UHGV virus genome: UHGV-0369446
DNA length: 19,970 bases
Direction: 5' to 3' (one strand)
From: a virus
This document shows positions 5,143 to 16,199 of this stretch, piece after piece; within the stretch, counting starts at the first letter, position 1, and every line of letters starts with the position of its first letter. The position numbers and the translations under genes were made by a program. The notes beneath the pieces are model-generated. The model had not been told where the DNA came from, did no database searches, and saw nothing but the letters and a program-made list of their open reading frames with translations.

Positions 5143-5766
5143 CTAACGTGTGACCGCATTCAAAATGTTGTCTGCGATTGACTCTTCTTTGTGGCATTGC
5201 ACCACCAGAGCGTCATACAGCGGCTTAACAGTGCGTGACCATGTGGGTTGGGTAAGGTTGGGGATTAGCATCGTTACAGCGCGATATGCGGCGCTTGCTG
5301 GCATCCTTGAATAGCCGACGCCTTTGCATCTTCCACACTCTTTCTCAACAACTCTCCCCCACTGCTCTGTTTTGGCAATATCAACCGCACGGCCTGTACC
5401 GTGGCAATCTCTGCATCTTGCGCCCGGCGTCGCGGCACTACGGCAATAATCCGCATAAGCGAATGTTGCGAGCACTTGCAGTACCTTTGCCTTAGTATTT
5501 CCTTCGAGCTTTGCCACACCACGATATTTCCCCGATACCTTGTGTGCAAATTGCATCAGATAGTTGATAGCCTTTTGTTTGTCATTCTGGCTGAGTTCGT
5601 GCTTGCCGCAGAATGCAGCCATACCGAATCCGGCTTGTGATTGCGCCATCCCCATAGCAGCCATCACATCAGTACCGGAAAGAGAGTCAGAAGCCGTAGC
5701 CCGTGGTGAGTCACTCATCATTGGGCTTTTTGGCGAATGAAATTTAGCTACGCTTTCGAGTCTCAT
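5143..5766 (-). CDS. Q: late gene antiterminator Q
   Basis: 207-aa ORF MRLESVAKFHSPKSPMMSDSPRATASDS..., matching lambda Q as I recall it over its full length. It includes the zinc-binding cysteine cluster CRDCHGTG...CGRCKG. Confidence 0.95.
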   Translation of the reverse strand: MRLESVAKFHSPKSPMMSDSPRATASDSLSGTDVMAAMGMAQSQAGFGMAAFCGKHELSQNDKQKAINYLMQFAHKVSGKYRGVAKLEGNTKAKVLQVLATFAYADYCRSAATPGARCRDCHGTGRAVDIAKTEQWGRVVEKECGRCKGVGYSRMPASAAYRAVTMLIPNLTQPTWSRTVKPLYDALVVQCHKEESIADNILNAVTR

Positions 5767-7484: not shown

Positions 7485-8008
7485 GCAGCCCTCCTGACGC
7501 CCTGCCCGATCGCCATCAATGCCGCTTTGGATACGGTAGTAAACATCCGTCGAGGACTGATGAACGGTCGCCAAATCAGCAGCATGGAGCCTTTGCTGTT
7601 TCCCTTCTTCTCCAGCCCTGTCGATGGTTCGATAAAATTAATCCGTCCATCAGTGATAATACGAACTTCGTCAACACTCTCCAGAGCCTTGCTGAACCAT
7701 CCGACAGACATATCCTCTGGCACAAGCATCACTACCGTCTGTCGCTGTTGTATACACTGCTCAGCGGCTTTTTCCACCCACGGCCTGATATTGCTGTACG
7801 GTGGGTTATTCCAGATTGCACCGTGGCTTACCCACTCAGAATTGAGCGCGTCGTCGTCCTCAGTTAGCCAGTGAGCGCACAGAGCATTTTTGTCGCTCGC
7901 TGCCGAATCCAGCCAGAATCCAAACTCAATATCCAGTGCATCAAAAAGCCAAAGCGGCGTTTGCCAGCAGTCCTTGTCGTGTGCTGGCGTATTTGATTTG
8001 ATAGTCAT
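7481..8008 (-). CDS. phage-type DNA N6-adenine methyltransferase (Dam-like, orphan)
   Basis: Start placed at [26 protein letters not shown] (ATGA overlap with the ninB stop). Contains the motif IWNNPPYS (the NPPY catalytic motif of N6-adenine MTases) and the WxTP start typical of small phage Dam-family enzymes. No adjacent restriction gene. Confidence 0.8.
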
Positions 8009-8445
8009 GCAGCCCGATCTCCCCATCGCGCTTTCCATTCGAGAGCCAGTCGCGCTTCGTCTGACCACTTAACGCCACGCTCTGTACCGAATGCCTGTAT
8101 AAGCTCTAATAGCTCCGCAAATTCGCTTACACGCATCCTGCTGGTTGACTGGCCTATTACCACAAAGCCATTCCCGGCAAGGTTAGGAACAACATCCTGC
8201 TGCTTTAATGCTGCGGTAAACACACACTTCCAGCTTTCTGCATCCAGCCAGCGACCATGCCATTCAACCTGACGAGAGACGTCACCTAAGCAGGCCCATA
8301 GCTTCCTGTTTTGGTCTAAGCTGCGGTTGCGTTCCTGAATGGTTACTACGATTGGTTTGGTTGGGTCTGGAAGGATTTGCTGTACTGCGTGAATAGCGTT
8401 TTGCTGATGTGCCGGAGATCGAATTTCAAAGGTTAGTTTTTTCAT
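8005..8445 (-). CDS. ninB: NinB (Orf-family recombination mediator)
   Basis: Trimmed to MKKLTFEIRSPAHQQNAIHAVQQILPDPTKPIVVTIQERNRSLDQNRKLWACLG..., which matches lambda NinB (146 aa) as I recall it. Confidence 0.9.
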   Translation of the reverse strand: MKKLTFEIRSPAHQQNAIHAVQQILPDPTKPIVVTIQERNRSLDQNRKLWACLGDVSRQVEWHGRWLDAESWKCVFTAALKQQDVVPNLAGNGFVVIGQSTSRMRVSEFAELLELIQAFGTERGVKWSDEARLALEWKARWGDRAA

Positions 8446-8457
8446 GACTTCCCTCTC

Positions 8458-8493
8458 CCCCAAATAAAAAGGCCTGCGATTACCTGCAGGCCT
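8458..8493 (-). terminator. tR2-like intrinsic terminator between ren and ninB
   Basis: Minus-strand 8-bp perfect stem AGGCCUGC/GCAGGCCU followed by UUUUUAUUU. Position matches lambda tR2 at the start of the nin region. Confidence 0.55.
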
Positions 8494-8518
8494 GTTATTA
8501 GCTCAGTGATGTAGATGG

Positions 8519-8809
8519 TCATCTTTTAACTCCATATACCGCCAATATCCGTTTCATCGTGGCACTCTGGCGACACTCCTTAAAAATCAGGTTCGTGCTC
8601 ATCTTTCCTTCCCGTTCTTCCTTGGTAGCAAACCGGTAATACACCGTTCGCCAGACCTTACCTTCGATAACCAGAAGACCTGCCCGTGCCATTTTAGCCG
8701 CGGCCTGATTTATGCTGGTTACTGTTGCGCCTGTTAGCGCGGCAACGTCCGGCGCACAGAAGCTATTATGCGTCCCCAGGTAATGAATAATTGCCTCTTT
8801 GCCCGTCAT
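8519..8809 (-). CDS. ren: Ren (Rex exclusion protection protein)
   Basis: 96-aa ORF MTGKEAIIHYLGTHNSFCAPDVAALTGATVTSINQAAAKMARAG..., matching lambda Ren from memory. Located directly downstream of P. Confidence 0.9.
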   Translation of the reverse strand: MTGKEAIIHYLGTHNSFCAPDVAALTGATVTSINQAAAKMARAGLLVIEGKVWRTVYYRFATKEEREGKMSTNLIFKECRQSATMKRILAVYGVKR

Positions 8810-9507
8810 ACACTTGCTCCTTTCAGTCCTAACTTAGCTTTAATTTCTGCGATCTTCGCCAGCGCCTGAACACGATTTAGAGGTCTGCCGCCCATGACAG
8901 GAAGTTGTTTTACTGGTTCAGGTATCGTCTCACCACGGTTAATTCGCGCTGTCATACAGGTCAGTTCATCGGCAGCCTTGCGTCGTAATTCCGCGTCAGT
9001 CAGCGCATTGGCCCGCATGTTCTGGTACAGGTTGGTAACCAGCCAGTAGTGCGCGTTCGATTTCCACGGATAAGACTCTGCATCCGGATACAGGCCTCGC
9101 TTCCGGCAATACTCGTAAACCATATCAACCAGCTCGCTGACGTTTGGCAGTCCGGCGATAACGGATGCTTCTTCCCGGCACCATGCAACAAACTGCCCGG
9201 GTGATGGCAGAAATGGTCGATTCTGCCGACGGGCTACGCGCATTCCTGCGTTAACCTGTTCCATTGTGGTGATCCCGTTTTCCCGGAAAGCCAGAACCCA
9301 CTGGCGGCGGATTTCGTTCAGTTCGTTCTGGTCACGGTTAGCCAGACTCGCCGGGAAAGTTGCCAGTAACTGGCTGAACACACCGTTGATGATCTGCGCT
9401 ACCTGCTGTACCTGCGGCTTTTCGTCGTACTGTTCCGGCATGTTGTTGGCGATCCGACGCATCTGCTCACGGTCAAAATTAACCATCTGTGCGGCGATGT
9501 TTTTCAT
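8806..9507 (-). CDS. P: replication protein P (DnaB helicase loader)
   Basis: 233-aa ORF MKNIAAQMVNFDREQMRRIANNMPEQYDEKPQVQQ..., matching lambda P from memory. Overlaps the O stop. Confidence 0.95.
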   Translation of the reverse strand: MKNIAAQMVNFDREQMRRIANNMPEQYDEKPQVQQVAQIINGVFSQLLATFPASLANRDQNELNEIRRQWVLAFRENGITTMEQVNAGMRVARRQNRPFLPSPGQFVAWCREEASVIAGLPNVSELVDMVYEYCRKRGLYPDAESYPWKSNAHYWLVTNLYQNMRANALTDAELRRKAADELTCMTARINRGETIPEPVKQLPVMGGRPLNRVQALAKIAEIKAKLGLKGASV

Positions 9508-10403
9508 AAATCCACCCCGTAAATCCAGTCAGTGTTTGTCAGGTCGAGTTTTGGTTTGCAGGCTGTCACACCTGCCTGTTGCTTGTTACGGTTGATTTCG
9601 AGCTGGGTCCACTTGTCGCGGAGTTTGGCCGGGCTCAGCACGTTACCGGACCAGAAGTTGTCCTGGCATGCCCAGCGGAACAGTACACACATGTCGCGAT
9701 GGTTACGTCCGTCACGTTCACGCATCAGGCGGATATCGTTAGCCCACCCTGCAAAATTCGGTTTTCTGGCTGATGGCGCGATGGTCTTCACCATGTCAAA
9801 CATCCATTCTGCGGCGGTCAGGTCTTCTGCTGTCCCCCACTTGCTGCCGCTCTGAATTGCAGCATCCGGTTTCACCACAGAAAGGTCGTTTTCTGGCTGG
9901 TCAGAGGATTCGCCAGAATTCTCTGACGAATAATCTTTTCTTTTTTCTTTTGTAATAGTGTCTTTTGTGTCCCCCTGTTTTGAGGGATAGCAATCCCCCA
10001 ATTTGAGGGATGTTTTATCCCTCGTTTTAGGGGATTTTCCCTCGTTTTGAGGGATACACCATTCTGAGATGTTTTTATTTGGTCCAAACATGCCGCCTTG
10101 CTGCTTGATAATATTCATTCTGACGAGTTCTAACTTGGCTTCATTGCACCGTTTGACGGGTAACTTTGTAATCTCGCTAAGTTGAGAATCGGTGATTCTG
10201 TCCATTGGTTTATTCCATCCATAGGTTTTACGCAGAATGGCAAGCAGCACTTTAAACTGTCGCTTGGTCAGATCTGCGCCTGAATAAGCCTCAAGCAGCA
10301 TATTTGATAGTCTGGCGTAACCATCATCGAGATCTGCCACATTACGCTCCTGTTTGGCAAAGTTACCTCTGCAGAAGTTGAGTATTTTTGCTGTATTTGT
10401 CAT
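9504..10403 (-). CDS. O: replication initiator O
   Basis: 299-aa ORF MTNTAKILNFCRGNFAKQERNVADLDDGYARLSNMLLEAY..., matching lambda O from memory. It contains the ori iterons within its coding sequence. Confidence 0.95.
   Translation of the reverse strand: MTNTAKILNFCRGNFAKQERNVADLDDGYARLSNMLLEAYSGADLTKRQFKVLLAILRKTYGWNKPMDRITDSQLSEITKLPVKRCNEAKLELVRMNIIKQQGGMFGPNKNISEWCIPQNEGKSPKTRDKTSLKLGDCYPSKQGDTKDTITKEKRKDYSSENSGESSDQPENDLSVVKPDAAIQSGSKWGTAEDLTAAEWMFDMVKTIAPSARKPNFAGWANDIRLMRERDGRNHRDMCVLFRWACQDNFWSGNVLSPAKLRDKWTQLEINRNKQQAGVTACKPKLDLTNTDWIYGVDL
9930..10056. repeat. lambda-type replication origin: four about 18-bp iterons plus an adjacent AT-rich region, inside gene O
   Basis: Four tandem copies of the inverted-repeat motif (T)CCCTC-N6-GAGGGAT at about 9971..9988, 9994..10011, 10017..10035 and 10038..10056, flanked by the AT-rich tract AATAATCTTTTCTTTTTTCTTTTGTAATAGTGTCTTTTGTGT. 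Confidence 0.85.
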
Positions 10404-10435
10404 AATGACTCCTGTGGATTGATCCAGTAATGACC

Positions 10436-10732
10436 TCAGAATTCCATCTGGATTTGTTCAGAACGCTCGGTTGCCGCCGGGCGTTTTTTATTGGTGAGTC
10501 CATCAAGCGCATACTTAAAAGCCCTGCTAATCGGACTGATGTCTGATGCCATTCCGAAAGCACACAAGACCGAAGCAATAAATCTCCAGTCCGTTCTGCT
10601 TATCTTCGATTCATGACAGCCAATCATCTTTGCCAGACCGCGCTGGGTAATAGCTGACAGATTGATAAGTAAATCTGTTTCTGCGCGATCAACGTCACGC
10701 TGTGATAGTTTGCTGTAACTTGTTCTTTCCAT
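10436..10732 (-). CDS. cII: CII-family transcriptional activator (chimeric: divergent N-terminal part, lambda-type C-terminal tail)
   Basis: 98-aa ORF. The last about 20 residues (LTNKKRPAATERSEQIQMEF) match lambda CII from memory. The rest has a helix-turn-helix-like segment (GLAKMIGCHESKISR) but differs from lambda CII. Confidence 0.8.
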   Translation of the reverse strand: MERTSYSKLSQRDVDRAETDLLINLSAITQRGLAKMIGCHESKISRTDWRFIASVLCAFGMASDISPISRAFKYALDGLTNKKRPAATERSEQIQMEF

Positions 10733-10816
10733 TTCTTAAGATTTCCAATAGTGAATAGTTAGTTGAAAGGTATGCGTGGAAACGCATATGGCCTTAGTTG
10801 GTCAGATATCTTGGAA

Positions 10817-10863
10817 CTCGCTTTTCAGCGACGTAGGACGAATGTCCGTTGTTACAAAGAGCG
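10817..10863 (-). promoter_or_regulatory. putative nutR (boxA + boxB)
   Basis: Minus-strand CGCTCTTTGTAACAACG (boxA-like) followed about 17 nt later by UCGCUGAAAAGCGA (4-bp stem, loop UGAAAA), between cro and cII. It pairs with the similar site upstream of N. Confidence 0.5.
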
Positions 10864-10873
10864 GATCCGCTTA

Positions 10874-11089
10874 TTAAGCGGCTTTGTGTTCCGGCGGGAA
10901 CACGTCATCAAGACTGACTTTTGCGCCTAACTTGTTTAGGCACGCAACAAGAGCACGGCATGTTTTAAGGTCTGGGAAGCGACGACCAGATTCCCAATGT
11001 CCGATAGCTCCCTGTGTGCATCCAACTGCCTTAGCAAGTGTTGTTTGAGAGATATTCAGTGACTCTCGATATTTTCGTAGGTTGCTCAT
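10874..11089 (-). CDS. cro: Cro-like repressor (helix-turn-helix)
   Basis: Trimmed to the internal Met, which has a GGAGGG Shine-Dalgarno 4 nt upstream. The 71-aa product MSNLRKYRESLNISQTTLAKAVGCTQGAIGHWESGRR has an HTH whose recognition helix (TQGAIGHW) is similar to that of the divergently encoded CI (TQGGIGHW). The long 128-aa form in the ORF track has an implausible hydrophobic leader. Confidence 0.75.
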   Translation of the reverse strand: MSNLRKYRESLNISQTTLAKAVGCTQGAIGHWESGRRFPDLKTCRALVACLNKLGAKVSLDDVFPPEHKAA

Positions 11090-11200
11090 ATGCCCTCCAT
11101 AGTAAACACGAATAAAAAAATACAATATGTACTTTGCGAATACAAGTAAAAATACACATTGTGCATGGATGGTTCCAGTACAGAGCGTAATAATAAGGAC
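11090..11200. promoter_or_regulatory. OR region: divergent pR/pRM promoters and operators
   Basis: 111-bp AT-rich intergenic region between divergent cro and cI. It contains palindrome-like elements (TACAATATGTA, CACATTGTG) and a TACTAT hexamer upstream of cro. Exact operator boundaries are not resolved. Confidence 0.6.
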
Positions 11201-11860
11201 ATGAAAATGAAATGGTATGAACTGGCTAGATCCAGAATGAAAGAGCTCGGCATAACTCAAGAGAAGTTAGCCGAAGAGCTAGGTATGACGCAGGGTGGGA
11301 TTGGACACTGGTTGCGCGGATCTCGTCATCCATCTCTTAGTGATATTGGTGTGGTGTTTAAATACCTTGGTATTGATAACATATCATTCAACCACGACGG
11401 GACATTTTCACCTGTTGGCGAATACTCATCGGCCCCAGTTAAAAAACAATATGAGTACCCTGTTTTTTCTCATGTTCAGGCTGGGATGTTCTCTCCAGAA
11501 CTCAGAACCTTTACCAAAGGCGATGCGGAGAGATTGGTAAGCACAACCAAAAAAGCCAGTGACTCTGCATTCTGGCTTGAGGTTGAAGGTAACTCAATGA
11601 CCGCACCAACAGGTTCCAAACCCAGCTTTCCTGACGGGATGTTAATTCTGGTTGACCCTGAGCAAGCTGTTGAGCCCGGCGATTTCTGCATAGCCAGACT
11701 TGGTGGTGATGAATTTACCTTCAAGAAACTGATCAGGGATAGCGGTCAGGTGTTTCTACAGCCACTAAACCCACAATACCCAATGATCCCATGCAATGAG
11801 AGTTGTTCCGTTGTGGGGAAAGTTATCGCCAGCCAATGGCCTGAAGAGACGTTTGGGTGA
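11201..11860 (+). CDS. cI: CI repressor (heteroimmune N-terminal HTH domain, lambda-type C-terminal S24/LexA-like autocleavage domain)
   Basis: From [26 protein letters not shown] to the C-terminus (..[12 protein letters not shown]) the sequence matches the lambda CI C-terminal domain from memory. The N-terminal domain differs from lambda CI. The start is either ATG 11201 or ATG 11207 (better spaced from the AAGGA Shine-Dalgarno). The ORF-track start at 11159 is probably too far upstream. Confidence 0.9.
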
Positions 11861-11899
11861 TGAAACCACTTTTATCTACAATTTACAGGGCGGTAAACA

Positions 11900-12457
11900 T
11901 TGGCAAAAATAGATGATTATCAGCCAAGCCAAGTAGAAGTTGATAAAGTACTTTATTGTAAAAAAATAGTTAACTTTTCTGGCGTTAAATGGAAACAGAA
12001 ACCAAGTCGCTCTGATATGTGGCTACAAGCCCATATCATCCCCTTGGATGAGGATTGTATACCTATACAAGGGCTAAAGTTTGAACTGAAATGGAAACCA
12101 GATCAGGATTCAGAACCTGATGACCCGATTTCTTACCCTAAAATAAATATTATTGCTTTCTATCATAACAAGAGGGTTTTCGCGGTAGATACCTATCACT
12201 TTGACAAACACACGAATAGTTACAAGGTCGATCATCCGAAGTACCAAGATATCATTTACGGTGCTCACTACCATGTATACTATGAAGAAGCTGGATACTA
12301 TAGTGATAGAATAGCGTTTCCAATCGAAGATGACATAAACCCAGATGACCTGGTAGGGTATTGGAATTACTTCTGTAAACATCTGAACATAACTTACTCT
12401 GGGAGAATACCTTTACCGCTTGAAGATGAGTCGGGGCAAATGGGGTTTGGAATATGA
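11900..12457 (+). CDS. hypothetical protein A (185 aa) of a two-gene operon in the rexA position; function unknown
   Basis: ORF beginning 40 nt after the cI stop. The only in-frame start before codon 40 is TTG at 11900 (in-frame TAA at 11894..11896). AT-rich composition; acidic, Tyr/His-rich product (YGAHYHVYYEEAGYY); no hydrophobic segments. Its stop overlaps the start of gene B (ATGA). Confidence 0.6.
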   Translation: MAKIDDYQPSQVEVDKVLYCKKIVNFSGVKWKQKPSRSDMWLQAHIIPLDEDCIPIQGLKFELKWKPDQDSEPDDPISYPKINIIAFYHNKRVFAVDTYHFDKHTNSYKVDHPKYQDIIYGAHYHVYYEEAGYYSDRIAFPIEDDINPDDLVGYWNYFCKHLNITYSGRIPLPLEDESGQMGFGI

Positions 12458-13206
12458 TGTGCTCAACAGTGATCTCACAACTAGGTTTCGAATGCCATCC
12501 AATAGGCAAGACCTTGAGAATTATCAGTCCATTCACTTACTGTGATGATGGAGAGCATGTCGGTGCCTTTATCCGTGAAGTCAATGGTAGGTATTTAGTT
12601 AGTGACAGATGCGATGCCTTAATGAATATGGAGGCAAGAGGGATCTCGCTTACCAAAAAACGACTTGATGAGATACGACAATTACTGCTTAAAGAAGGCG
12701 CAGAACTCAATGCTCGAGGAGAAATCATTGCTTGGGCAACAGAAAAGGATGTCGGTGCGATTACATCGAACATAATTAGAGCTGGTATACTCGCATCAAC
12801 TTTGTCGTTAGACTGGTATCAGCCAGTTCAAGCTGAAAAGTTTGAAAGTATGGTTATTGATTATCTATATCACACAGAGCTTAGAGACGCACTTTCTCTT
12901 CGTGAAAACGTATATGGCTTGAGTGGACATCAAATTACCGTCCCTGTAACAATAAAAACCGACATACCTAAATACGTTTTTACATCAAGCGTGAAACACG
13001 GAGGAAGCTGGAATAGTGCTTACTCATTGCTTGGGAAACTAATTGATCTTAAAGCTTCAAGTGAGGAGTATAACAACAGATTTGTTGTTATAGACAGCGA
13101 AGCAATTGGTGATCAAATGCAACAACTCTCCTTACTCTTCCATGAATCAAGCCAAGTTCTACCATTCTCCAAAAGAGAGACTTGGGTTAAGAGACTTGCA
13201 GCATAA
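12454..13206 (+). CDS. hypothetical protein B (250 aa) of a two-gene operon in the rexB position; function unknown
   Basis: ORF starting ATGATG and overlapping the gene A stop. AT-rich. No membrane-spanning segments evident, unlike RexB. Followed directly by a strong intrinsic terminator. Confidence 0.65.
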   Translation: MMCSTVISQLGFECHPIGKTLRIISPFTYCDDGEHVGAFIREVNGRYLVSDRCDALMNMEARGISLTKKRLDEIRQLLLKEGAELNARGEIIAWATEKDVGAITSNIIRAGILASTLSLDWYQPVQAEKFESMVIDYLYHTELRDALSLRENVYGLSGHQITVPVTIKTDIPKYVFTSSVKHGGSWNSAYSLLGKLIDLKASSEEYNNRFVVIDSEAIGDQMQQLSLLFHESSQVLPFSKRETWVKRLAA

Positions 13207-13210
13207 TACA

Positions 13211-13238
13211 ACCCGGCCTCAGCGCCGGGTTTTCTTTG
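13211..13238 (+). terminator. intrinsic terminator ending the cI / rex-slot operon
   Basis: CCCGGC-CTCAGC-GCCGGG hairpin followed by TTTTCTTT, immediately after the gene B stop. Confidence 0.75.
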
Positions 13239-13424
13239 CCTCACGTTCGCCCACCTAAAAACACATAACCAATTATATTTATTGAAAAATAAATAGATGC
13301 AACCCACTAAACCACGCAATTCTGATCTCTCCTTACATCGCCGAGGCAATACATCCACGCTAAAAAACAACACTATTAAATACAAAGCGTTATAAAAAAC
13401 CACGCCAACTTACAACAAATTGTA

Positions 13425-13453
13425 TTGATCTTGTAAAGTACATATCGTACTAT
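13425..13453 (+). promoter_or_regulatory. putative pL promoter (with OL operators in the surrounding AT-rich region about 13380..13460)
   Basis: TTGATC (13425..13430), a 17-nt spacer, then TACTAT (13448..13453), oriented toward N. Flanking palindrome-like elements TACAACAAATTGTA and GTACATAT share half-sites with the OR region. Confidence 0.5.
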
Positions 13454-13498
13454 TTAACCGTCAGCAGGACGCTGGAAGCCAAATGGAACAGACTGGCA

Positions 13499-13546
13499 GG
13501 CTCTTTAAACAACGTCGACTCTCGACTACGTGGCTGAAAAGCCAGA
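13499..13546 (+). promoter_or_regulatory. putative nutL (boxA + boxB)
   Basis: GCTCTTTAAACAACG (boxA-like) followed about 16 nt later by TGGCTGAAAAGCCA (4-bp stem, loop TGAAAA), between pL and N. The stem differs from the nutR candidate by a compensatory base-pair change. Confidence 0.5.
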
Positions 13547-13642
13547 TCACCCAACCACATAAGCTGTGGGATGCAATGCCGAAGCAACCGTCTCAGGAGG
13601 AGCTTCGAGATTGCATCGCCAAAGTTTATTCGGGAGGAATCC

Positions 13643-13915
13643 ATGTCCAGAAAAACAGAATTTAAAGGCACCGCAGCTTCTCGCCGTAGAGCTCGTCGCG
13701 CAAATCTGCAAAGTCAGGAGGCGATCAGCTCCGACAAGCTACACAGGCCAACCCCTTCACGAGTGGTCTTGCAATGCAAGCTCAAACCAGCAATGAGAGC
13801 AGAAGTGATAACTCTGACAACGTTGACCAGAAAATATGAAGGTTCAACTTGTCTTCCGAACGTAGCTCTTTACGCGGCAGGCTACCGGAAATCAAAACAA
13901 CTGACGGCGAGATGA
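13643..13915 (+). CDS. N: N-family antitermination protein
   Basis: Start placed at the ATG preceded by GGGAGG (MSRKTEFKGTAASRRRARRANLQSQ...). It has an N-terminal arginine-rich motif like N proteins and is the first gene after pL/nutL. The sequence differs from lambda N and resembles non-lambda N variants (phage 21 / P22 gp24 type) as far as I recall. Confidence 0.7.
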   Translation: MSRKTEFKGTAASRRRARRANLQSQEAISSDKLHRPTPSRVVLQCKLKPAMRAEVITLTTLTRKYEGSTCLPNVALYAAGYRKSKQLTAR

Positions 13916-13931
13916 TAAATTCATTTGCTAA

Positions 13932-14513
13932 TTACTTGTTTTTGCCATGCTTATCCTGAGCGATAAGTTCATCCATAAGGCTGTCTGCCTTCCCGGCAAA
14001 CCTAATGTAGCACTCATGTCTATAGCTTTCAGGGATAACGAAACGGTCGGTATCAGGATATCCAACAGCAGGAGGCCTTCGAACGAGGAGTCCTTTTTTG
14101 AGCAATGAAATTGATTCATGAGCGCCCTTTTCCGTTTGTAGCTGGTTATTAGCGGCTACAGCGAATGCCAAATACGCTCTTTCTCCAAGAGTTAACGAAT
14201 CAAACAAATCTTGCACATATTTTTCTTCTTTAGATTTGCGCTTCTGAGCAGCGAATACCTCAATTCTTTCAGTCACAGCGTGATAAGCGGAATTAACAAC
14301 GCCGTTAAGCACATAGCTAACGCAAAACAACAGGATGTAATACATCCAGTAATGAGGAAGGATTTCTGGATTATGCAGGTTTATCCATTCTTTTACGCTT
14401 ACCGGCATAACAATAATCAATATGATCAGGATGATTAGCATATGAATCAACTGTTTAAGTGTCATTCCTTGCAGGAAAAAATGCATTAGTTCCTGCCACC
14501 ATGAGTTGTTCAT
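13932..14513 (-). CDS. sieB: superinfection exclusion protein SieB
   Basis: 193-aa ORF with an N-terminal hydrophobic membrane segment (LIHMLIILIILIIVMPV). It lies on the opposite strand between N and ral, as lambda/P22 sieB does. Similarity to SieB is from memory. Confidence 0.7.
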   Translation of the reverse strand: MNNSWWQELMHFFLQGMTLKQLIHMLIILIILIIVMPVSVKEWINLHNPEILPHYWMYYILLFCVSYVLNGVVNSAYHAVTERIEVFAAQKRKSKEEKYVQDLFDSLTLGERAYLAFAVAANNQLQTEKGAHESISLLKKGLLVRRPPAVGYPDTDRFVIPESYRHECYIRFAGKADSLMDELIAQDKHGKNK

Positions 14514-14656
14514 CGGCGTTTCTCTTTTGCTCTCTGTAGGGGTGAATAGAGTTTATCCGATTTCTCGTTGTAGGGGTACACGAGAACCACCGAGCCTGAT
14601 GTGGTTAAAAGACAGGCACAATCTTTACTACCGCAATCCACTCTTTAAGGTGATAT

Positions 14657-14743
14657 ATGGAAGAAGAATTTGAAGAGTTCGAAGAGCATCCTCAAGATGT
14701 GATGGAACAATACCAGGACTATCCGTATGACTACGACTATTGA
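14657..14743 (+). CDS. small acidic ORF (28 aa), lambda orf28-like
   Basis: Manual translation gives MEEEFEEFEEHPQDVMEQYQDYPYDYDY. Its 3' end overlaps the ral start. Position matches lambda orf28 as I recall; below the ORF-track size cutoff. Confidence 0.45.
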   Translation: MEEEFEEFEEHPQDVMEQYQDYPYDYDY

Positions 14744-14927
14744 TACAAATCAATGGTGTGGACAATTCAAACGATGCAATGGATGCAAGCTGCAATCGGA
14801 ATGCATGGTTAAGCCTGAAGAAATGTTTCCTGTAATGGAAGATGGGAAATATGTCGATAAATGGGCAATACGAACGACGGCAATGATTGCCAGAGAACTT
14901 GGTAAACAGAACAACAAAGCTGCCTGA
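14727..14927 (+). CDS. ral: Ral restriction-alleviation protein
   Basis: 66-aa ORF MTTTIDTNQWCGQFKRCNGCKLQSECMVKPEEMFPVMEDGKYVDKWAIRTTAMIARELGKQNNKAA, matching lambda Ral from memory. Confidence 0.9.
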   Translation: MTTTIDTNQWCGQFKRCNGCKLQSECMVKPEEMFPVMEDGKYVDKWAIRTTAMIARELGKQNNKAA

Positions 14928-15063
14928 TAGTGGCCTTTATTTTTGGCATAAATAACAGAATAAACACTGCACTGTGTATTCATTCCAACGAGTGAATACA
15001 CGGAGCAATGTCGCTCGTAACTAAACAGGAGCCGACTTGTTCTGATTATTGGAAATCTTCTTT

Positions 15064-15090
15064 GCCCTCCAGTGTGAGGGCGATTTTTTA
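15064..15090 (+). terminator. intrinsic terminator (tL2-like) between ral and ea10
   Basis: GCCCTC-CAGTGT-GAGGGC hairpin followed by GATTTTTTA. Confidence 0.55.
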
Positions 15091-15109
15091 TCTATGAGGA
15101 TATGAATAG

Positions 15110-15478
15110 ATGTCAAACATCAAAAAATACATCATTGATTACGACTGGAAAGCATCAATAGAAATTGAAATTGACCATGACGTAATGACAGAGGAAAAAC
15201 TTCACCAGATTAATAATTTCTGGTCAGACTCTGAATACCGACTCAATAAACACGGCTCTGTATTAAATGCTGTATTAATCATGCTGGCGCAACATGCTCT
15301 GCTTATAGCAATTTCAAGCGACTTAAATGCATATGGTGTTGTGTGTGAGTTCGACTGGAATGATGGAAATGGTCAGGAAGGATGGCCTCCAATGGATGGT
15401 AGTGAAGGAATAAGAATTACCGATATCGATACATCAGGAATATTTGATTCAGATGATATGACTATCAAGGCCGCCTGA
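15110..15478 (+). CDS. ea10: Ea10-like early protein
   Basis: 122-aa ORF in the ea10 position between ral and cIII. Same length as lambda Ea10. Sequence identity is recalled only loosely. Confidence 0.6.
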   Translation: MSNIKKYIIDYDWKASIEIEIDHDVMTEEKLHQINNFWSDSEYRLNKHGSVLNAVLIMLAQHALLIAISSDLNAYGVVCEFDWNDGNGQEGWPPMDGSEGIRITDIDTSGIFDSDDMTIKAA

Positions 15479-15550
15479 GCGCGGCGTTACCGCATACCAA
15501 TTACGCTTCACTCGAGGCGTTTTTCGTTATGTATAAATAAGGAGCACACC

Positions 15551-15715
15551 ATGCAATATGCCATTGCAGGGTGGCCTGTTGCTGGCTGCCCTTCCGAATC
15601 TTTACTTGAACGAATCACCCGTAAATTACGTGACGGATGGAAACGCCTTATCGACATACTTAATCAGCCAGGAGTCCCAAAAAATGGATCAAACAATTAT
15701 GGCTATCCAGACTAA
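15551..15715 (+). CDS. cIII: CIII (inhibitor of FtsH, stabilises CII)
   Basis: Manual translation gives [54 protein letters not shown] (54 aa), matching lambda CIII from memory. Below the ORF-track cutoff and in a different frame from the listed 89-aa ORF. Confidence 0.85.
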   Translation: MQYAIAGWPVAGCPSESLLERITRKLRDGWKRLIDILNQPGVPKNGSNNYGYPD

Positions 15716-15827
15716 ATTCACTATCGCCACTTTTATTGGCGATGAAAAGATGTTTCGTGAGGCCGTCGACGCTTATAAAAAATGGATATTAATACTGAAA
15801 CTGAGATCAAGCAAAAGCATTCACTAA
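15684..15827 (+). CDS. kil: Kil (FtsZ inhibitor)
   Basis: 47-aa product [47 protein letters not shown], matching lambda Kil from memory. It is the 3' portion of the 89-aa ORF in the track and overlaps the cIII 3' end in another frame. Confidence 0.85.
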
Positions 15828-15902
15828 CCCCCTTTCCTGTTTTCCTAATCAGCCTGGCATTTCGCGGGCGATATTTTCACAGCCATTTTCAGGAGTTCAG
15901 CC

Positions 15903-16199
15903 ATGAACGCTTATTACATTCAGGATCGTCTTGAGGCTCAGAGCTGGGCGCGTCACTACCAGCAGATCGCCCGTGAAGAGAAAGAGGCAGAACTGGCAGA
16001 CGACATGGAAAAAGGCCTGCCCCAGCACCTGTTTGAATCGCTATGCATCGATCATTTACAACGCCACGGGGCCAGCAAAAAAGCCATTACCCGTGCGTTT
16101 GATGACGATGTTGAGTTTCAGGAGCGCATGGCAGAACACATCCGGTACATAGTTGAAACCATTGCTCACCATCAGGCTGATATTGATTCAGAGGTATAA
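15903..16199 (+). CDS. gam: Gam (RecBCD inhibitor), short GamS form
   Basis: 98-aa [63 protein letters not shown]..., matching lambda GamS from memory. Confidence 0.92.

Follow-up and report, generated by a model that had tools for sequence, protein, structure and literature searches.

The window, i.e., the whole stretch of 19,970 nt of the UHGV virus genome UHGV-0369446 that was analysed, contains at 10,436-11,860 the feature studied here. As originally predicted, this feature holds cII, cro and cI; the immunity system nevertheless continues beyond it, to the operators OL1-3 at 13378-13452 and to N. The following elements were located:

8005-10498, minus strand, lambda-type replication module with the ninB-side end, ren, P, O, pO-oop-tO and the last 20 cII codons plus stop
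10378-10493, plus strand, predicted oop antisense-RNA unit, running against cII, whose 3' end it overlaps, and adjoining the O gene
10436-10732, minus strand, cII, 98 aa, with codons 1-78 (10499-10732) representing an HK97/VT2-Sakai-type allele
10436-10498, minus strand, cII codons 79-98 plus stop, lambda-type, with the crossover placed at 10498-10501 by informative sites
10499-10864, minus strand, separately assorting block of the cII N-part, pRE, tR1 and nutR
10874-11089, minus strand, cro, 71 aa, of an all-HTH_3 type and not lambda-Cro-like
11118-11192, no strand assigned, OR with predicted 17-bp operators OR1 (11118-11134, AAATACAATATGTACTT), OR2 (11150-11166) and OR3 (11176-11192), overlapped by PR and PRM
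11207-11860, plus strand, cI, 217 aa, start as in the VT2-Sakai record (mechanical ORF start 11159)
11207-11449, plus strand, cI codons 1-81, short HTH_3 DNA-binding domain and first part of the hinge, without the lambda-type N-terminal arm
11450-11861, plus strand, cI codons 82-217 plus stop, cleavage-site region and S24 catalytic/oligomerisation domain, the shared "lambda-type" block
11900-13206, plus strand, cargo occupying the rex position and consisting of a 185-aa and a 250-aa ORF that overlap
13209-13331, plus strand, conserved terminator block with a predicted tImm-like intrinsic terminator (stem 13210-13231) closing the cI operon
13378-13452, no strand assigned, OL with predicted operators OL3 (13378-13394), OL2 (13410-13426) and OL1 (13436-13452), of the same specificity as OR
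13571-13915, plus strand, N antiterminator of the VT2-Sakai type, 114-aa ORF, left part of the substituted immunity region

With a probability of roughly 0.9, the region would represent the lysis/lysogeny switch (immunity region) of a lambda-like E. coli prophage, being of the VT2-Sakai (Sp5) type from N to codon 78 of cII. Both this immunity type and the sharp joints between lambda and non-lambda DNA are ordinary and already known, the repressor belonging to a common and already annotated type. The backbone appears lambda-like on both sides, with O-P-ren on the right and cIII-kil-gam on the left as seen in lambda orientation, and the lambda cIII thermoregulator is the sole Rfam hit in the window (15538-15596). 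A blastn comparison of the window with lambda 33000-42000 revealed four blocks only:

8005-10498, equivalent to lambda 38591-41084, 97.3% identical
11450-11861, equivalent to lambda 37226-37637, 93.4% identical
13210-13331, 90.2% identical to lambda
14534-16015, 98.3% identical to lambda, with lambda-like DNA resuming at 14534

Exact breakpoints were assigned to 11449/11450, 10498-10501, about 10864 and 11858-11861, and the sharpness of these boundaries is far above the chance expectation. A uniform divergence of cI and cII from lambda, named by the original prediction as the outcome that would speak against a chimeric region, was not seen, the identity boundaries being sharp.

The N-terminal part of CI matches Pfam HTH_3 (E 1.9e-10, residues 9-56) and the C-terminal part Peptidase_S24 (E 1.1e-28). 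Ala92-Gly93, Ser130 and Lys173 occupy invariant columns and align with lambda A111-G112, S149 and K192, so that the protein, with its HTH, S24 domain, Ser/Lys dyad and Ala-Gly site, can be regarded as a probable LexA/CI-type repressor. By homology, the C-terminal part would be responsible for dimerisation and cooperativity as well as for self-cleavage at Ala92-Gly93, stimulated by RecA and catalysed by Ser130/Lys173; it aligns to the lambda cI 101-229 crystal construct 2ho0 as well as to 3bdn and is 99% identical to the solved lambda structures. The expected lambda-likeness of this domain and of the last approximately 20 residues of CII was confirmed by 135 of 136 (residues 82-217) and 20 of 20 identical positions, respectively. 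Likewise, the parts expected to differ from lambda do so: CI residues 1-81 share 21-25% of amino acids depending on the alignment, with their DNA at 45%, i.e., the level of unrelated sequence, CII residues 1-78 share 27.8%, Cro is unalignable and the operators are of a non-lambda type. In the alignments, lambda identity begins abruptly at position 11450, at TATGAGTACCCTG and 10 residues ahead of the Ala-Gly cleavage site; left of 11449/11450 the cI DNA cannot be aligned to lambda, right of it the identity amounts to 93.4%, and it stops one base past the cI stop codon. Residues 1-81 are 100% identical to VT2-Sakai, Nil2, Stx2-II and others, and codons 1-81 would form the immunity-specific part of the gene.

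Cro is likewise an HTH_3 protein (E 4.2e-12), identical in 71 of 71 residues to that of VT2-Sakai and paralogous to the N-terminal part of CI (35% over 62 residues, E 1e-12). The near-identical recognition helices noticed at the outset, TQGGIGHW in CI and TQGAIGHW in Cro, are indeed present. Also the proposed search for operators was successful, as six predicted 17-bp sites share the non-lambda core ARTACA-N3-YGT. The motif ARTACANNNYGT occurred 8 times, with 0.44 matches expected and none of 200 shuffles reaching 8, and 7 of the 8 matches are accounted for by the six sites. OR1-3 and OL1 are identical to operators annotated for VT2-Sakai; the other two OL sites retain the core and are nearly, though not exactly, identical. 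A pattern with an N5 spacer had given 33 matches compared to 21.6 expected, which was not significant, and was discarded in favour of N3. No lambda operator (TATCACCGCCAGTGGTA-like) was found within 3 mismatches. The centres of the operators are spaced by 32 and 26 bp, as compared to about 24 and 23 bp in lambda. Judging from homology, CI (217 aa) would bind the six 17-bp operators AARTACA-N3-YGT, three in OR and three in OL, via its short HTH_3 domain, and Cro (71 aa) would bind the same six sites by means of almost the same recognition helix. The N-terminal part of CI, Cro and the operators are all non-lambda, which sets the region apart from the lambda immunity group. Still, complete heteroimmunity with lambda is likely rather than proven, since lambda CI binds the six VT2-Sakai operators weakly in vitro, with KDapp values of 3.7-6.4 uM vs 0.2-3.1 uM for its own sites (Sedhom & Solomon 2023, PMC10742460).

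The history of the joint inside cI can be approached from its distribution. The core comprising cro, OR and the N-terminal part of cI occurs in 776 of 5426 complete E. coli genomes (~14%), and the C-terminal block is attached to it in all 776. About 435 further E. coli genomes carry the C-terminal block only, with the match starting exactly at 11450. As the block is thus commoner with this N-terminal domain than without it, "lambda-type" is a misnomer. At the nucleotide level, the block is 98.1-98.5% identical to VT2-Sakai vs 93.4% to lambda, at true lambda flanks of 97-98%. Because it is nearer to Sakai than to lambda and attached in every carrier found, the whole cI gene would have arrived as one unit, with a joint which is old and was not made in this genome. 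This joint would represent an old, family-wide domain boundary directly before the cleavage-site region, a point at which many N-terminal families would have recombined with one C-terminal family. Consistent with this, at least five N-terminal families were found on the one C-terminal family, the junction falling in the same column in all of them. On a neighbour-joining tree of the C-terminal part (136 residues, 113 tips), at least 33 changes of the N-terminal family were counted, a number which over-estimates the re-assortments, as the tree relies on only 136 residues that recombine themselves.

An alternative is a single recent event in which a heteroimmune segment replaced the DNA-binding parts of lambda, leaving the C-terminal domain of lambda cI and the cII tail as flanks. 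Such an event would agree with the sharp boundaries within both cI and cII and with the contiguous, 97.3% lambda-like DNA formed by the cII tail and all that follows on its right. The cI side nevertheless contradicts it: besides the identity values given above, the C-terminal block is not contiguous with lambda-type DNA, being followed after the stop codon by non-lambda cargo, and the same combination of N- and C-terminal parts is present in Stx phages whose replication genes are of the HK022 type, as well as in the 776 genomes. Moreover, the substituted segment itself is made up of two or more modules, given that cro-cI and the cII N-part assort independently of each other. This scenario is accordingly quite improbable, and for cI the identity gradient largely refutes it. 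The same observations do not bear out the original view of the cI joint as a graft onto a lambda-type flank of this phage, as the DNA past the stop codon is non-lambda cargo and the block itself Sakai-like, and leave the assigned direction of the graft unsupported, as one C-terminal family is shared at a single column.

It might also be assumed that cI has experienced no recombination at all, i.e., that one ancestral gene possesses a DNA-binding domain diverging fast under selection for specificity and a C-terminal domain held constant. The N-terminal domains of lambda and the window are in fact distant homologues, both of the HTH_3 type and sharing ELG[IL][ST]QE..A....GM.Q.G.G. However, the C-terminal block (411 nt) is conserved at synonymous sites as well: of the 27 nucleotides differing from lambda, 26 represent synonymous changes, and no more than 25 of the 137 third codon positions are affected. 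The N-terminal DNA is at the unrelated level, the switch occurs within one or two codons and the N-terminal families are interleaved on the C-terminal tree, which renders a purely divergent origin highly implausible. Variable sites of the block are patchy among 8 phages. Finally, an assembly chimera or another artefact in the window has a negligible probability. No sign of one was found; that no record contiguously covers at least 80% of the 20-kb window is normal for lambdoid mosaics. Positions 10300-12000 are 100% identical to the isolated phages ev207, ev017, PhiR57_1 and PhiR63_2, and for cro-cI (10865-11861) a 100% match exists in complete chromosomes, e.g., that of E. coli ATCC 11775. 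These identical junctions in independent finished genomes exclude an artefact.

The acquisition of cI as a unit with an old internal joint is preferred here. The donor hoped for by the original prediction could not be named: there is no classical donor, the nearest N-terminal relatives outside this immunity group being only 48-56% identical (phage L, the g341c/epsilon34 group of Salmonella, and phages of Klebsiella and Vibrio). Searches with the N-terminal domain found no donor carrying it on a different C-terminal domain. By tblastn, there was no full-length match between 93% and 56% identity, and the few matches at 60-80% each covered less than half of the query. Phage Louie was considered as a donor because its match seemed to end at the joint; it was rejected, as both Louie and Dewey possess this same hybrid cI, their C-terminal block having diverged further (91% nt). 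The shared block is 80% identical to that of BIS08P22, which has a short N-terminal family, and 64% to that of P8983 with a lambda-like one. The hint from these two outgroups that lambda itself might be the recipient in the chimera was dismissed, since in a wider sample each band of C-terminal identity contained all of the N-terminal families.

The joint inside cII is of another kind. CII matches Pfam Phage_CII (PF05269, E 7e-34, residues 1-92). When aligned together with VT2-Sakai and HK97, the window follows lambda up to 10498; this identity extends from the O gene, accounts for the last 20 CII residues (LTNKKRPAATERSEQIQMEF) and is gone from 10499 on. The predicted location of joints inside both coding sequences thus holds with respect to the sharp boundaries at 11449/11450 and 10498-10501, but the one in cII marks the border of the replication module, where the oop terminator ends. 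It coincides with the 3' end of the oop unit, the known limit of this module in lambda, as also seen in lambda imm21 hybrids, and does not reflect a border between protein domains selected for specificity. The joint agrees with a crossover involving a replication module of the lambda type, because the cII tail and the DNA to its right are contiguous and 97.3% lambda-like. Homologous recombination alone fails to explain its position, as the crossover was placed at the outermost margin of the homologous oop patch and not inside. In lambdoid phages, the oop unit comprises pO, a transcript of about 77 nt and an intrinsic terminator. The oop stretch is near-identical to lambda and contains the conserved 33-nt sequence of PMC3349717; pO was predicted by a promoter scan (10378-10406, TTGAGT-17-CATAAT) and the terminator by a terminator scan (stem 10460-10487, then a T-run), and no Rfam hit was obtained in this stretch. 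Twenty-three lambdoid phages, VT2-Sa and Nil2 among them, have the 33-nt oop/pO sequence in conserved form, cII of lambda imm21 hybrids differs left of oop, and the last 17 CII residues are dispensable for activity (PMC3349717).

The adjoining block 10499-10864 is 97.6% identical to Stx2-II/VT2-Sakai-type phages and 93-97% to HK97 and mEp234, with matches ending at 10864. HK97, which has lambda-type cI and cro, carries this allele of the cII N-part at 93%, and Louie and Dewey combine the same cro-cI with other cII alleles. Since the allele stands beside lambda-type cI and cro in HK97, the cII N-part is a separately assorting module and neither an immunity determinant nor, as had been supposed, a heteroimmune DNA-binding module. 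The positions of pRE, tR1 and nutR were carried over from the annotation of the VT2-Sakai record (offset 7392). A lambda-like predicted pRE/CII site TTGC-N6-TTGT (TTGCTGTAACTTGT, 10710-10723, plus strand) is found where the CII site is annotated in VT2-Sakai, corresponding to the direct repeat TTGC-N6-TTGC which CII proteins use at pRE within the cII 5' end, and the evidence for it is positional, the TTGC motif count in the window not being above chance. By homology, CII would activate pRE at this site, and the oop antisense RNA would overlap its last 20 codons.

On the other side of cI, the rex-position cargo is located inside the immunity transcription unit and is not part of the switch. Its ORFs match Pfam DUF6978 (weakly) and DUF1828 and have no similarity to lambda rexAB. 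They may form a candidate defence pair, with PADLOC hits to PDC-M24A (E 4.8e-4, residues 104-163 only) and PDC-M24B (E 4.7e-10, full length); a literature search on PDC-M24 yielded no paper. The terminator block, common to heteroimmune phages, is 90% identical to lambda 35708-35826 and also matches HK97, HK542, ev099 and VT2-Sakai. N is assigned to Pfam N_peptide (E 9.7e-33), and 13209-13915 as a whole is 93.2% identical to VT2-Sakai. As a rather doubtful idea, the conserved 3' half of cI and the tImm block may serve as homology "handles" for exchanging defence cargo in the rex slot. Taken together, the comparisons suggest a mosaic of four independently assorting blocks: (a) lambda-type oop-O-P including the cII tail, (b) the HK97/Sakai-type cII N-part with nutR, (c) cro-OR-cI as a single unit, plus the matching OL, and (d) variable cargo from the cI stop codon to the conserved terminator block.

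The C-terminal parts of lambda-type and Sakai-type CI differ in 1-4 of 136 residues. In E. coli O157:H7 Sakai, a lambda-type CI (cryptic prophage Sp1, ECs_0274) and a Sakai-type CI (Stx2 prophage Sp5) are present together. Based on the near-identical dimerisation/cooperativity/cleavage domain and this natural co-residence, the two might form mixed dimers or higher oligomers and so link prophages that are otherwise independent in their stability and induction, a tentative and rather doubtful idea. If true, a cryptic prophage CI could, e.g., titrate the repressor of an Stx phage.

As a discovery, the region is of small value, since textbooks already describe how lambdoid immunity regions are mosaics of domains and of modules and this immunity type already carries promoter, operator and nut-site annotation in the VT2-Sakai record. 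Its use is that of a clean, quantified illustration with exact breakpoints. Practical relevance is limited to the typing of prophage immunity groups in pathogenic E. coli and, as an idea, to co-resident heteroimmune repressors that might interact via their shared C-terminal domains.

Among the known systems, lambda shares with the window the gene order and logic, the cleavage-site/C-terminal part of CI, the CII tail with oop, the tImm block and the CII target motif; it differs in the CI DNA-binding domain, the N-terminal arm, the Cro family and the operators, and its rexAB are replaced in the window. In phages 434 and P22, Cro and the N-terminal domain of the repressor are HTH paralogues whose similar recognition helices serve one operator set. 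The CI/Cro paralogy in the window resembles these pairs, although P22 C2 is only about 37% identical to the window CI. The Salmonella epsilon34/g341c/BIS08P22 repressors combine a short N-terminal family (48-51%) with a lambda-like C-terminal domain, the latter 80% identical to the window. For epsilon34, a lambda/HK97-like C-terminal protease domain, a VT2-Sa/Nil2/L-like N-terminal part and a proposed operator core WTACRAWWTGTAT were described (PMC2629481); this core is similar to that of the window. As both repressor domains are diverged, this group represents another immunity specificity and not the donor. A literature search on Nil2 gave nothing useful. In the lambda imm21 hybrid, as described, the substitution spans N, OL, cI, OR, cro and the cII N-terminal part, its right boundary lies in cII immediately left of where oop overlaps this gene and the replication genes remain those of lambda (PMC3349717), all of which is found in the window, but the immunity specificity is different. 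The closest system is VT2-Sakai (Sp5), whose cassette is 96.6% identical to window positions 10396-11858 and whose record already annotates promoters, operators, nut sites and the CII site. Its presumably homoimmune relatives comprise Stx2-II, the Stx1 phage of Morioka V526, Nil2, 1717, YYZ-2008, 2851 and the PA-series phages as well as the non-Stx phages ev207, ev017, 2G7b and 2B8. This group agrees with the window in CI (99.5-100%), the cII N-part (97.6%) and N (about 93%). VT2-Sakai differs in having an HK022-type instead of a lambda-type cII tail, oop, O, P and ren, the CII tail being DGLTNKKRPAATERSEQIQMEF in the window and DEITKKKSPAATEDFKQIDMQF in VT2-Sakai; in addition, the cargo downstream of cI differs, and the window, unlike VT2-Sakai, is without stx context.

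The window represents a lambdoid phage or prophage in an orientation opposite to that of the lambda map, with three genes at the immunity switch:

10436-10732, minus strand: cII, 98 aa, Pfam Phage_CII
10874-11089, minus strand: cro, 71 aa, Pfam HTH_3
11207-11860, plus strand: cI, 217 aa from the start codon of the VT2-Sakai record (Stx2 phage, prophage Sp5 of E. coli O157:H7 Sakai), Pfam HTH_3 and Peptidase_S24; the mechanically called ORF starts earlier, at 11159

Comparison with lambda 33000-42000 by blastn gave only four blocks of similarity.

Blocks of blastn similarity between the window and lambda
window 8005-10498, lambda 38591-41084, 97.3%
window 11450-11861, lambda 37226-37637, 93.4%
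window 13210-13331, lambda 35708-35826, 90.2%
window 14534-16015, lambda 33000-34480, 98.3%

Base-by-base alignment placed the switch to lambda identity within cI at 11449/11450, with the Ala-Gly cleavage site ten residues further on, and the end of the similarity one base past the stop codon. In cII, the lambda-like DNA running from O via oop reaches 10498 and is gone from 10499. CI is 21-25% identical to lambda in residues 1-81 and matches it at 135/136 positions in residues 82-217; likewise, CII shows 27.8% identity in residues 1-78 and 20/20 in its tail. The recognition-helix strings TQGGIGHW (CI) and TQGAIGHW (Cro) are both present, and Cro is clearly paralogous to the N-terminal part of CI (35% identity, E 1e-12). 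The original prediction, which described lambda-matching C-terminal ends, diverged N-terminal parts and operators, near-identical recognition helices and sharp joints inside both genes, is confirmed as an observation in every particular. It was over-interpreted in three respects: it assumed a graft into lambda, counted the N-terminal part of cII in the specificity module and expected the donor to be identifiable.

Positions 10300-12000 recur without a difference in four isolated coliphages (ev207, ev017, PhiR57_1 and PhiR63_2; 100% identity), and 10392-11858 recurs at 96.6% identity in VT2-Sakai, Stx2-II, the Morioka Stx1 phage and many O157 Stx phages. The VT2-Sakai GenBank record annotates cI ('similar to lambda CI'), cro, cII, PR, PRM, a CII site, nutR, tR1 and six 17-bp operators, of which all three OR and one OL were found unchanged. 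The core ARTACA-N3-YGT matches eight times in the 20-kb window (0.44 expected; at least eight in 0/200 shuffles), and seven of these matches form the six sites, with no lambda operator in the window at up to three mismatches:

11118-11134, 11150-11166 and 11176-11192: three OR sites, matches to the motif
13378-13394, 13410-13426 and 13436-13452: three OL sites, matches to the motif

The operators of lambda are spaced by roughly 24 and 23 bp. Here, centre-to-centre spacings of 32 and 26 bp follow in the same plus-strand order at OR (11118-11192) and OL (13378-13452), unlike those of lambda although the cooperativity domain is 99% identical, and the promoter-proximal pair is spaced by 32 bp at PR versus 26 bp at PL. 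With operators and recognition domains unrelated to those of lambda, heteroimmunity to lambda is to be expected, although lambda CI is reported to bind VT2-Sakai operators weakly in vitro, in the micromolar range (PMC10742460). The segment 13209-13915 (terminator block, OL, nutL, N) is 93% identical to VT2-Sakai. The immunity substitution relative to lambda therefore spans N to cII codon 78, with lambda-like DNA back at 14534. Among 5426 complete E. coli genomes, 776 contain the core (cro, OR and the cI N-terminal part, 10865-11449).

Three results show that the cI joint predates this genome and was not created in it. First, the C-terminal block (codons 82-217 and stop) is 98.1-98.5% identical to VT2-Sakai versus 93.4% to lambda, compared with 97-98% for genuine lambda-type flanks of this phage, which speaks against a graft into lambda; it also lacks adjoining lambda-type DNA, non-lambda cargo following after the stop codon. 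Second, the core is joined to it in the same genomes (776/776). About 435 further genomes carry the block without the core, the match beginning exactly at 11450, and both translated examples (n = 2) have lambda-type N-terminal domains. Third, a search with the 136 residues gave 113 full-length representatives bearing at least five families of N-terminal parts (44 HTH_19-type of 212-216 aa, 40 Sakai/epsilon34, 25 lambda and two small families), all fused at the same column, [YF]xYP[VL]FSHVQAG. On the C-terminal neighbour-joining tree, at least 33 switches of N-terminal family are counted, against a possible minimum of 4 and, for shuffled labels, 53.8 on average and never fewer than 45. The figure of 33 is approximate and inflated, because the alignment is short and itself recombines. 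The block is conserved at synonymous sites: just one of its 27 differences from lambda changes the protein, the other 26 being synonymous, and its variable sites are patchy among eight phages. The abrupt boundary is thus the product of recombination and not of unequal selection. The block matches the crystallographically solved, cleavage-competent lambda fragment 'cI 101-229'. Shuffling takes place between the DNA-binding domain and a unit that is complete for cleavage, dimerisation and cooperativity. Neither side can be assigned as donor or recipient: the nearest N-terminal relatives beyond the own immunity group (Salmonella g341c/epsilon34/BIS08P22, phage L, Klebsiella and Vibrio phages) are just 48-56% identical, and the searches gave no close classical type among P22, L and lambda-immunity phages, with 434, 21, HK022, phi80 and 933W outside the comparison.

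Besides, the cI of an E. coli LR-60 prophage (L010 598-1311) combines a lambda-type N-terminal domain with a BIS08P22/epsilon34-like distal C-terminal half, which indicates further recombination within the C-terminal domain itself. In E. coli O157:H7 Sakai, the cryptic prophage Sp1 encodes a lambda-type CI (ECs_0274; L013 5941-6654) and Sp5 a Sakai-type CI (L002 3815-4468). Since these differ at only 4/136 C-terminal positions, mixed dimers or oligomers of the two heteroimmune repressors are conceivable.

In a three-way alignment, the window resembles VT2-Sakai and HK97 between about 10864 and 10501 and lambda from 10498 on, which confines the crossover in cII to about three bases. Directly on the lambda-like side lie:

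10378-10406, plus strand: pO
10460-10487, plus strand: stem of the oop terminator, followed by a T-run

The lambda-type block therefore ends just past the oop transcript, by 5-10 bases, and the joint is the edge of the replication module, not a CII domain boundary selected for specificity. Likewise, lambda imm21 has the same pattern, with cII changed left of oop and small differences within the overlap (Hayes et al., PMC3349717); the last 17 CII residues are unneeded for activity and required for oop control, and VT2-Sa and Nil2 are among the 23 lambdoid phages across which the conserved oop region was aligned (PMC3349717). The N-terminal cII allele and nutR (10499-10864) recur at 93-97% in HK97 and mEp234, HK97 having lambda-type cI (237 aa) and cro, and in Louie and Dewey a Sakai-type cro-cI is accompanied by cII alleles of lambda type or of other types. 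This part of cII is thus no immunity determinant. The repeat at the pRE position, TTGC-N6-TTGT, is lambda-like. A perfect TTGC-N6-TTGC repeat, TTGCGAGCACTTGC (5466-5479, plus strand), lies antisense inside a 207-aa ORF (5143-5766, minus strand) equal in length to lambda Q, at the position expected of the CII-dependent promoter paQ; the motif is no more frequent in the window than chance predicts.

Two overlapping ORFs (11900-13206, plus strand) occupy the position of lambda rexA/rexB: 185 aa with a weak DUF6978 and 250 aa with DUF1828. Both show similarity to PDC-M24, a candidate defence pair in PADLOC, with a partial match to component A (E 4.8e-4) and a full-length match to component B (E 4.7e-10); a literature search on PDC-M24 gave no paper. 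The slot has the cI stop codon (11858-11861) on one side and, on the other, a conserved block (13209-13331) with a tImm-like terminator (13210-13231), both of them common to lambda, HK97, HK542, ev099 and VT2-Sakai. The cargo differs in the four phages inspected (rexAB in lambda, H0093 in VT2-Sakai, an NYN-domain gene in ev099, HK244-like genes in HK542), and the slot has the appearance of a hot-swap site for cargo expressed by prophages. Additionally, a 193-aa SieB-family superinfection-exclusion ORF (13932-14513, minus strand; Pfam SieB, E 2.5e-22) sits between N and the return of lambda-like DNA in DNA that is itself not lambda-like, and the lambda-like left arm contains the Rfam cIII thermoregulator element Lambda_thermo (15538-15596, plus strand, 88.5 bits).

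In the proposed mechanism, CI and Cro would compete for the six operators, CI binding with pairwise cooperativity through its lambda-type C-terminal domain until inactivated by RecA-stimulated self-cleavage. CII would set up repressor synthesis from pRE. Its restraint would come from oop antisense RNA and probably, like that of lambda CII, from proteolysis via the conserved tail.

The finding is real and was observed correctly, and its interest is low, each component being of a kind already known: immunity of the VT2-Sakai group, replication genes of lambda type and lambdoid modular recombination. The replacement from N to cII codon 78 is similar in extent to the classical imm21 substitution. 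Moreover, the same kind of domain-level mosaicism in this repressor family has been described for epsilon34, whose repressor joins a protease domain like that of lambda and HK97 to a DNA-binding part resembling those of VT2-Sa, Nil2 and L (PMC2629481).
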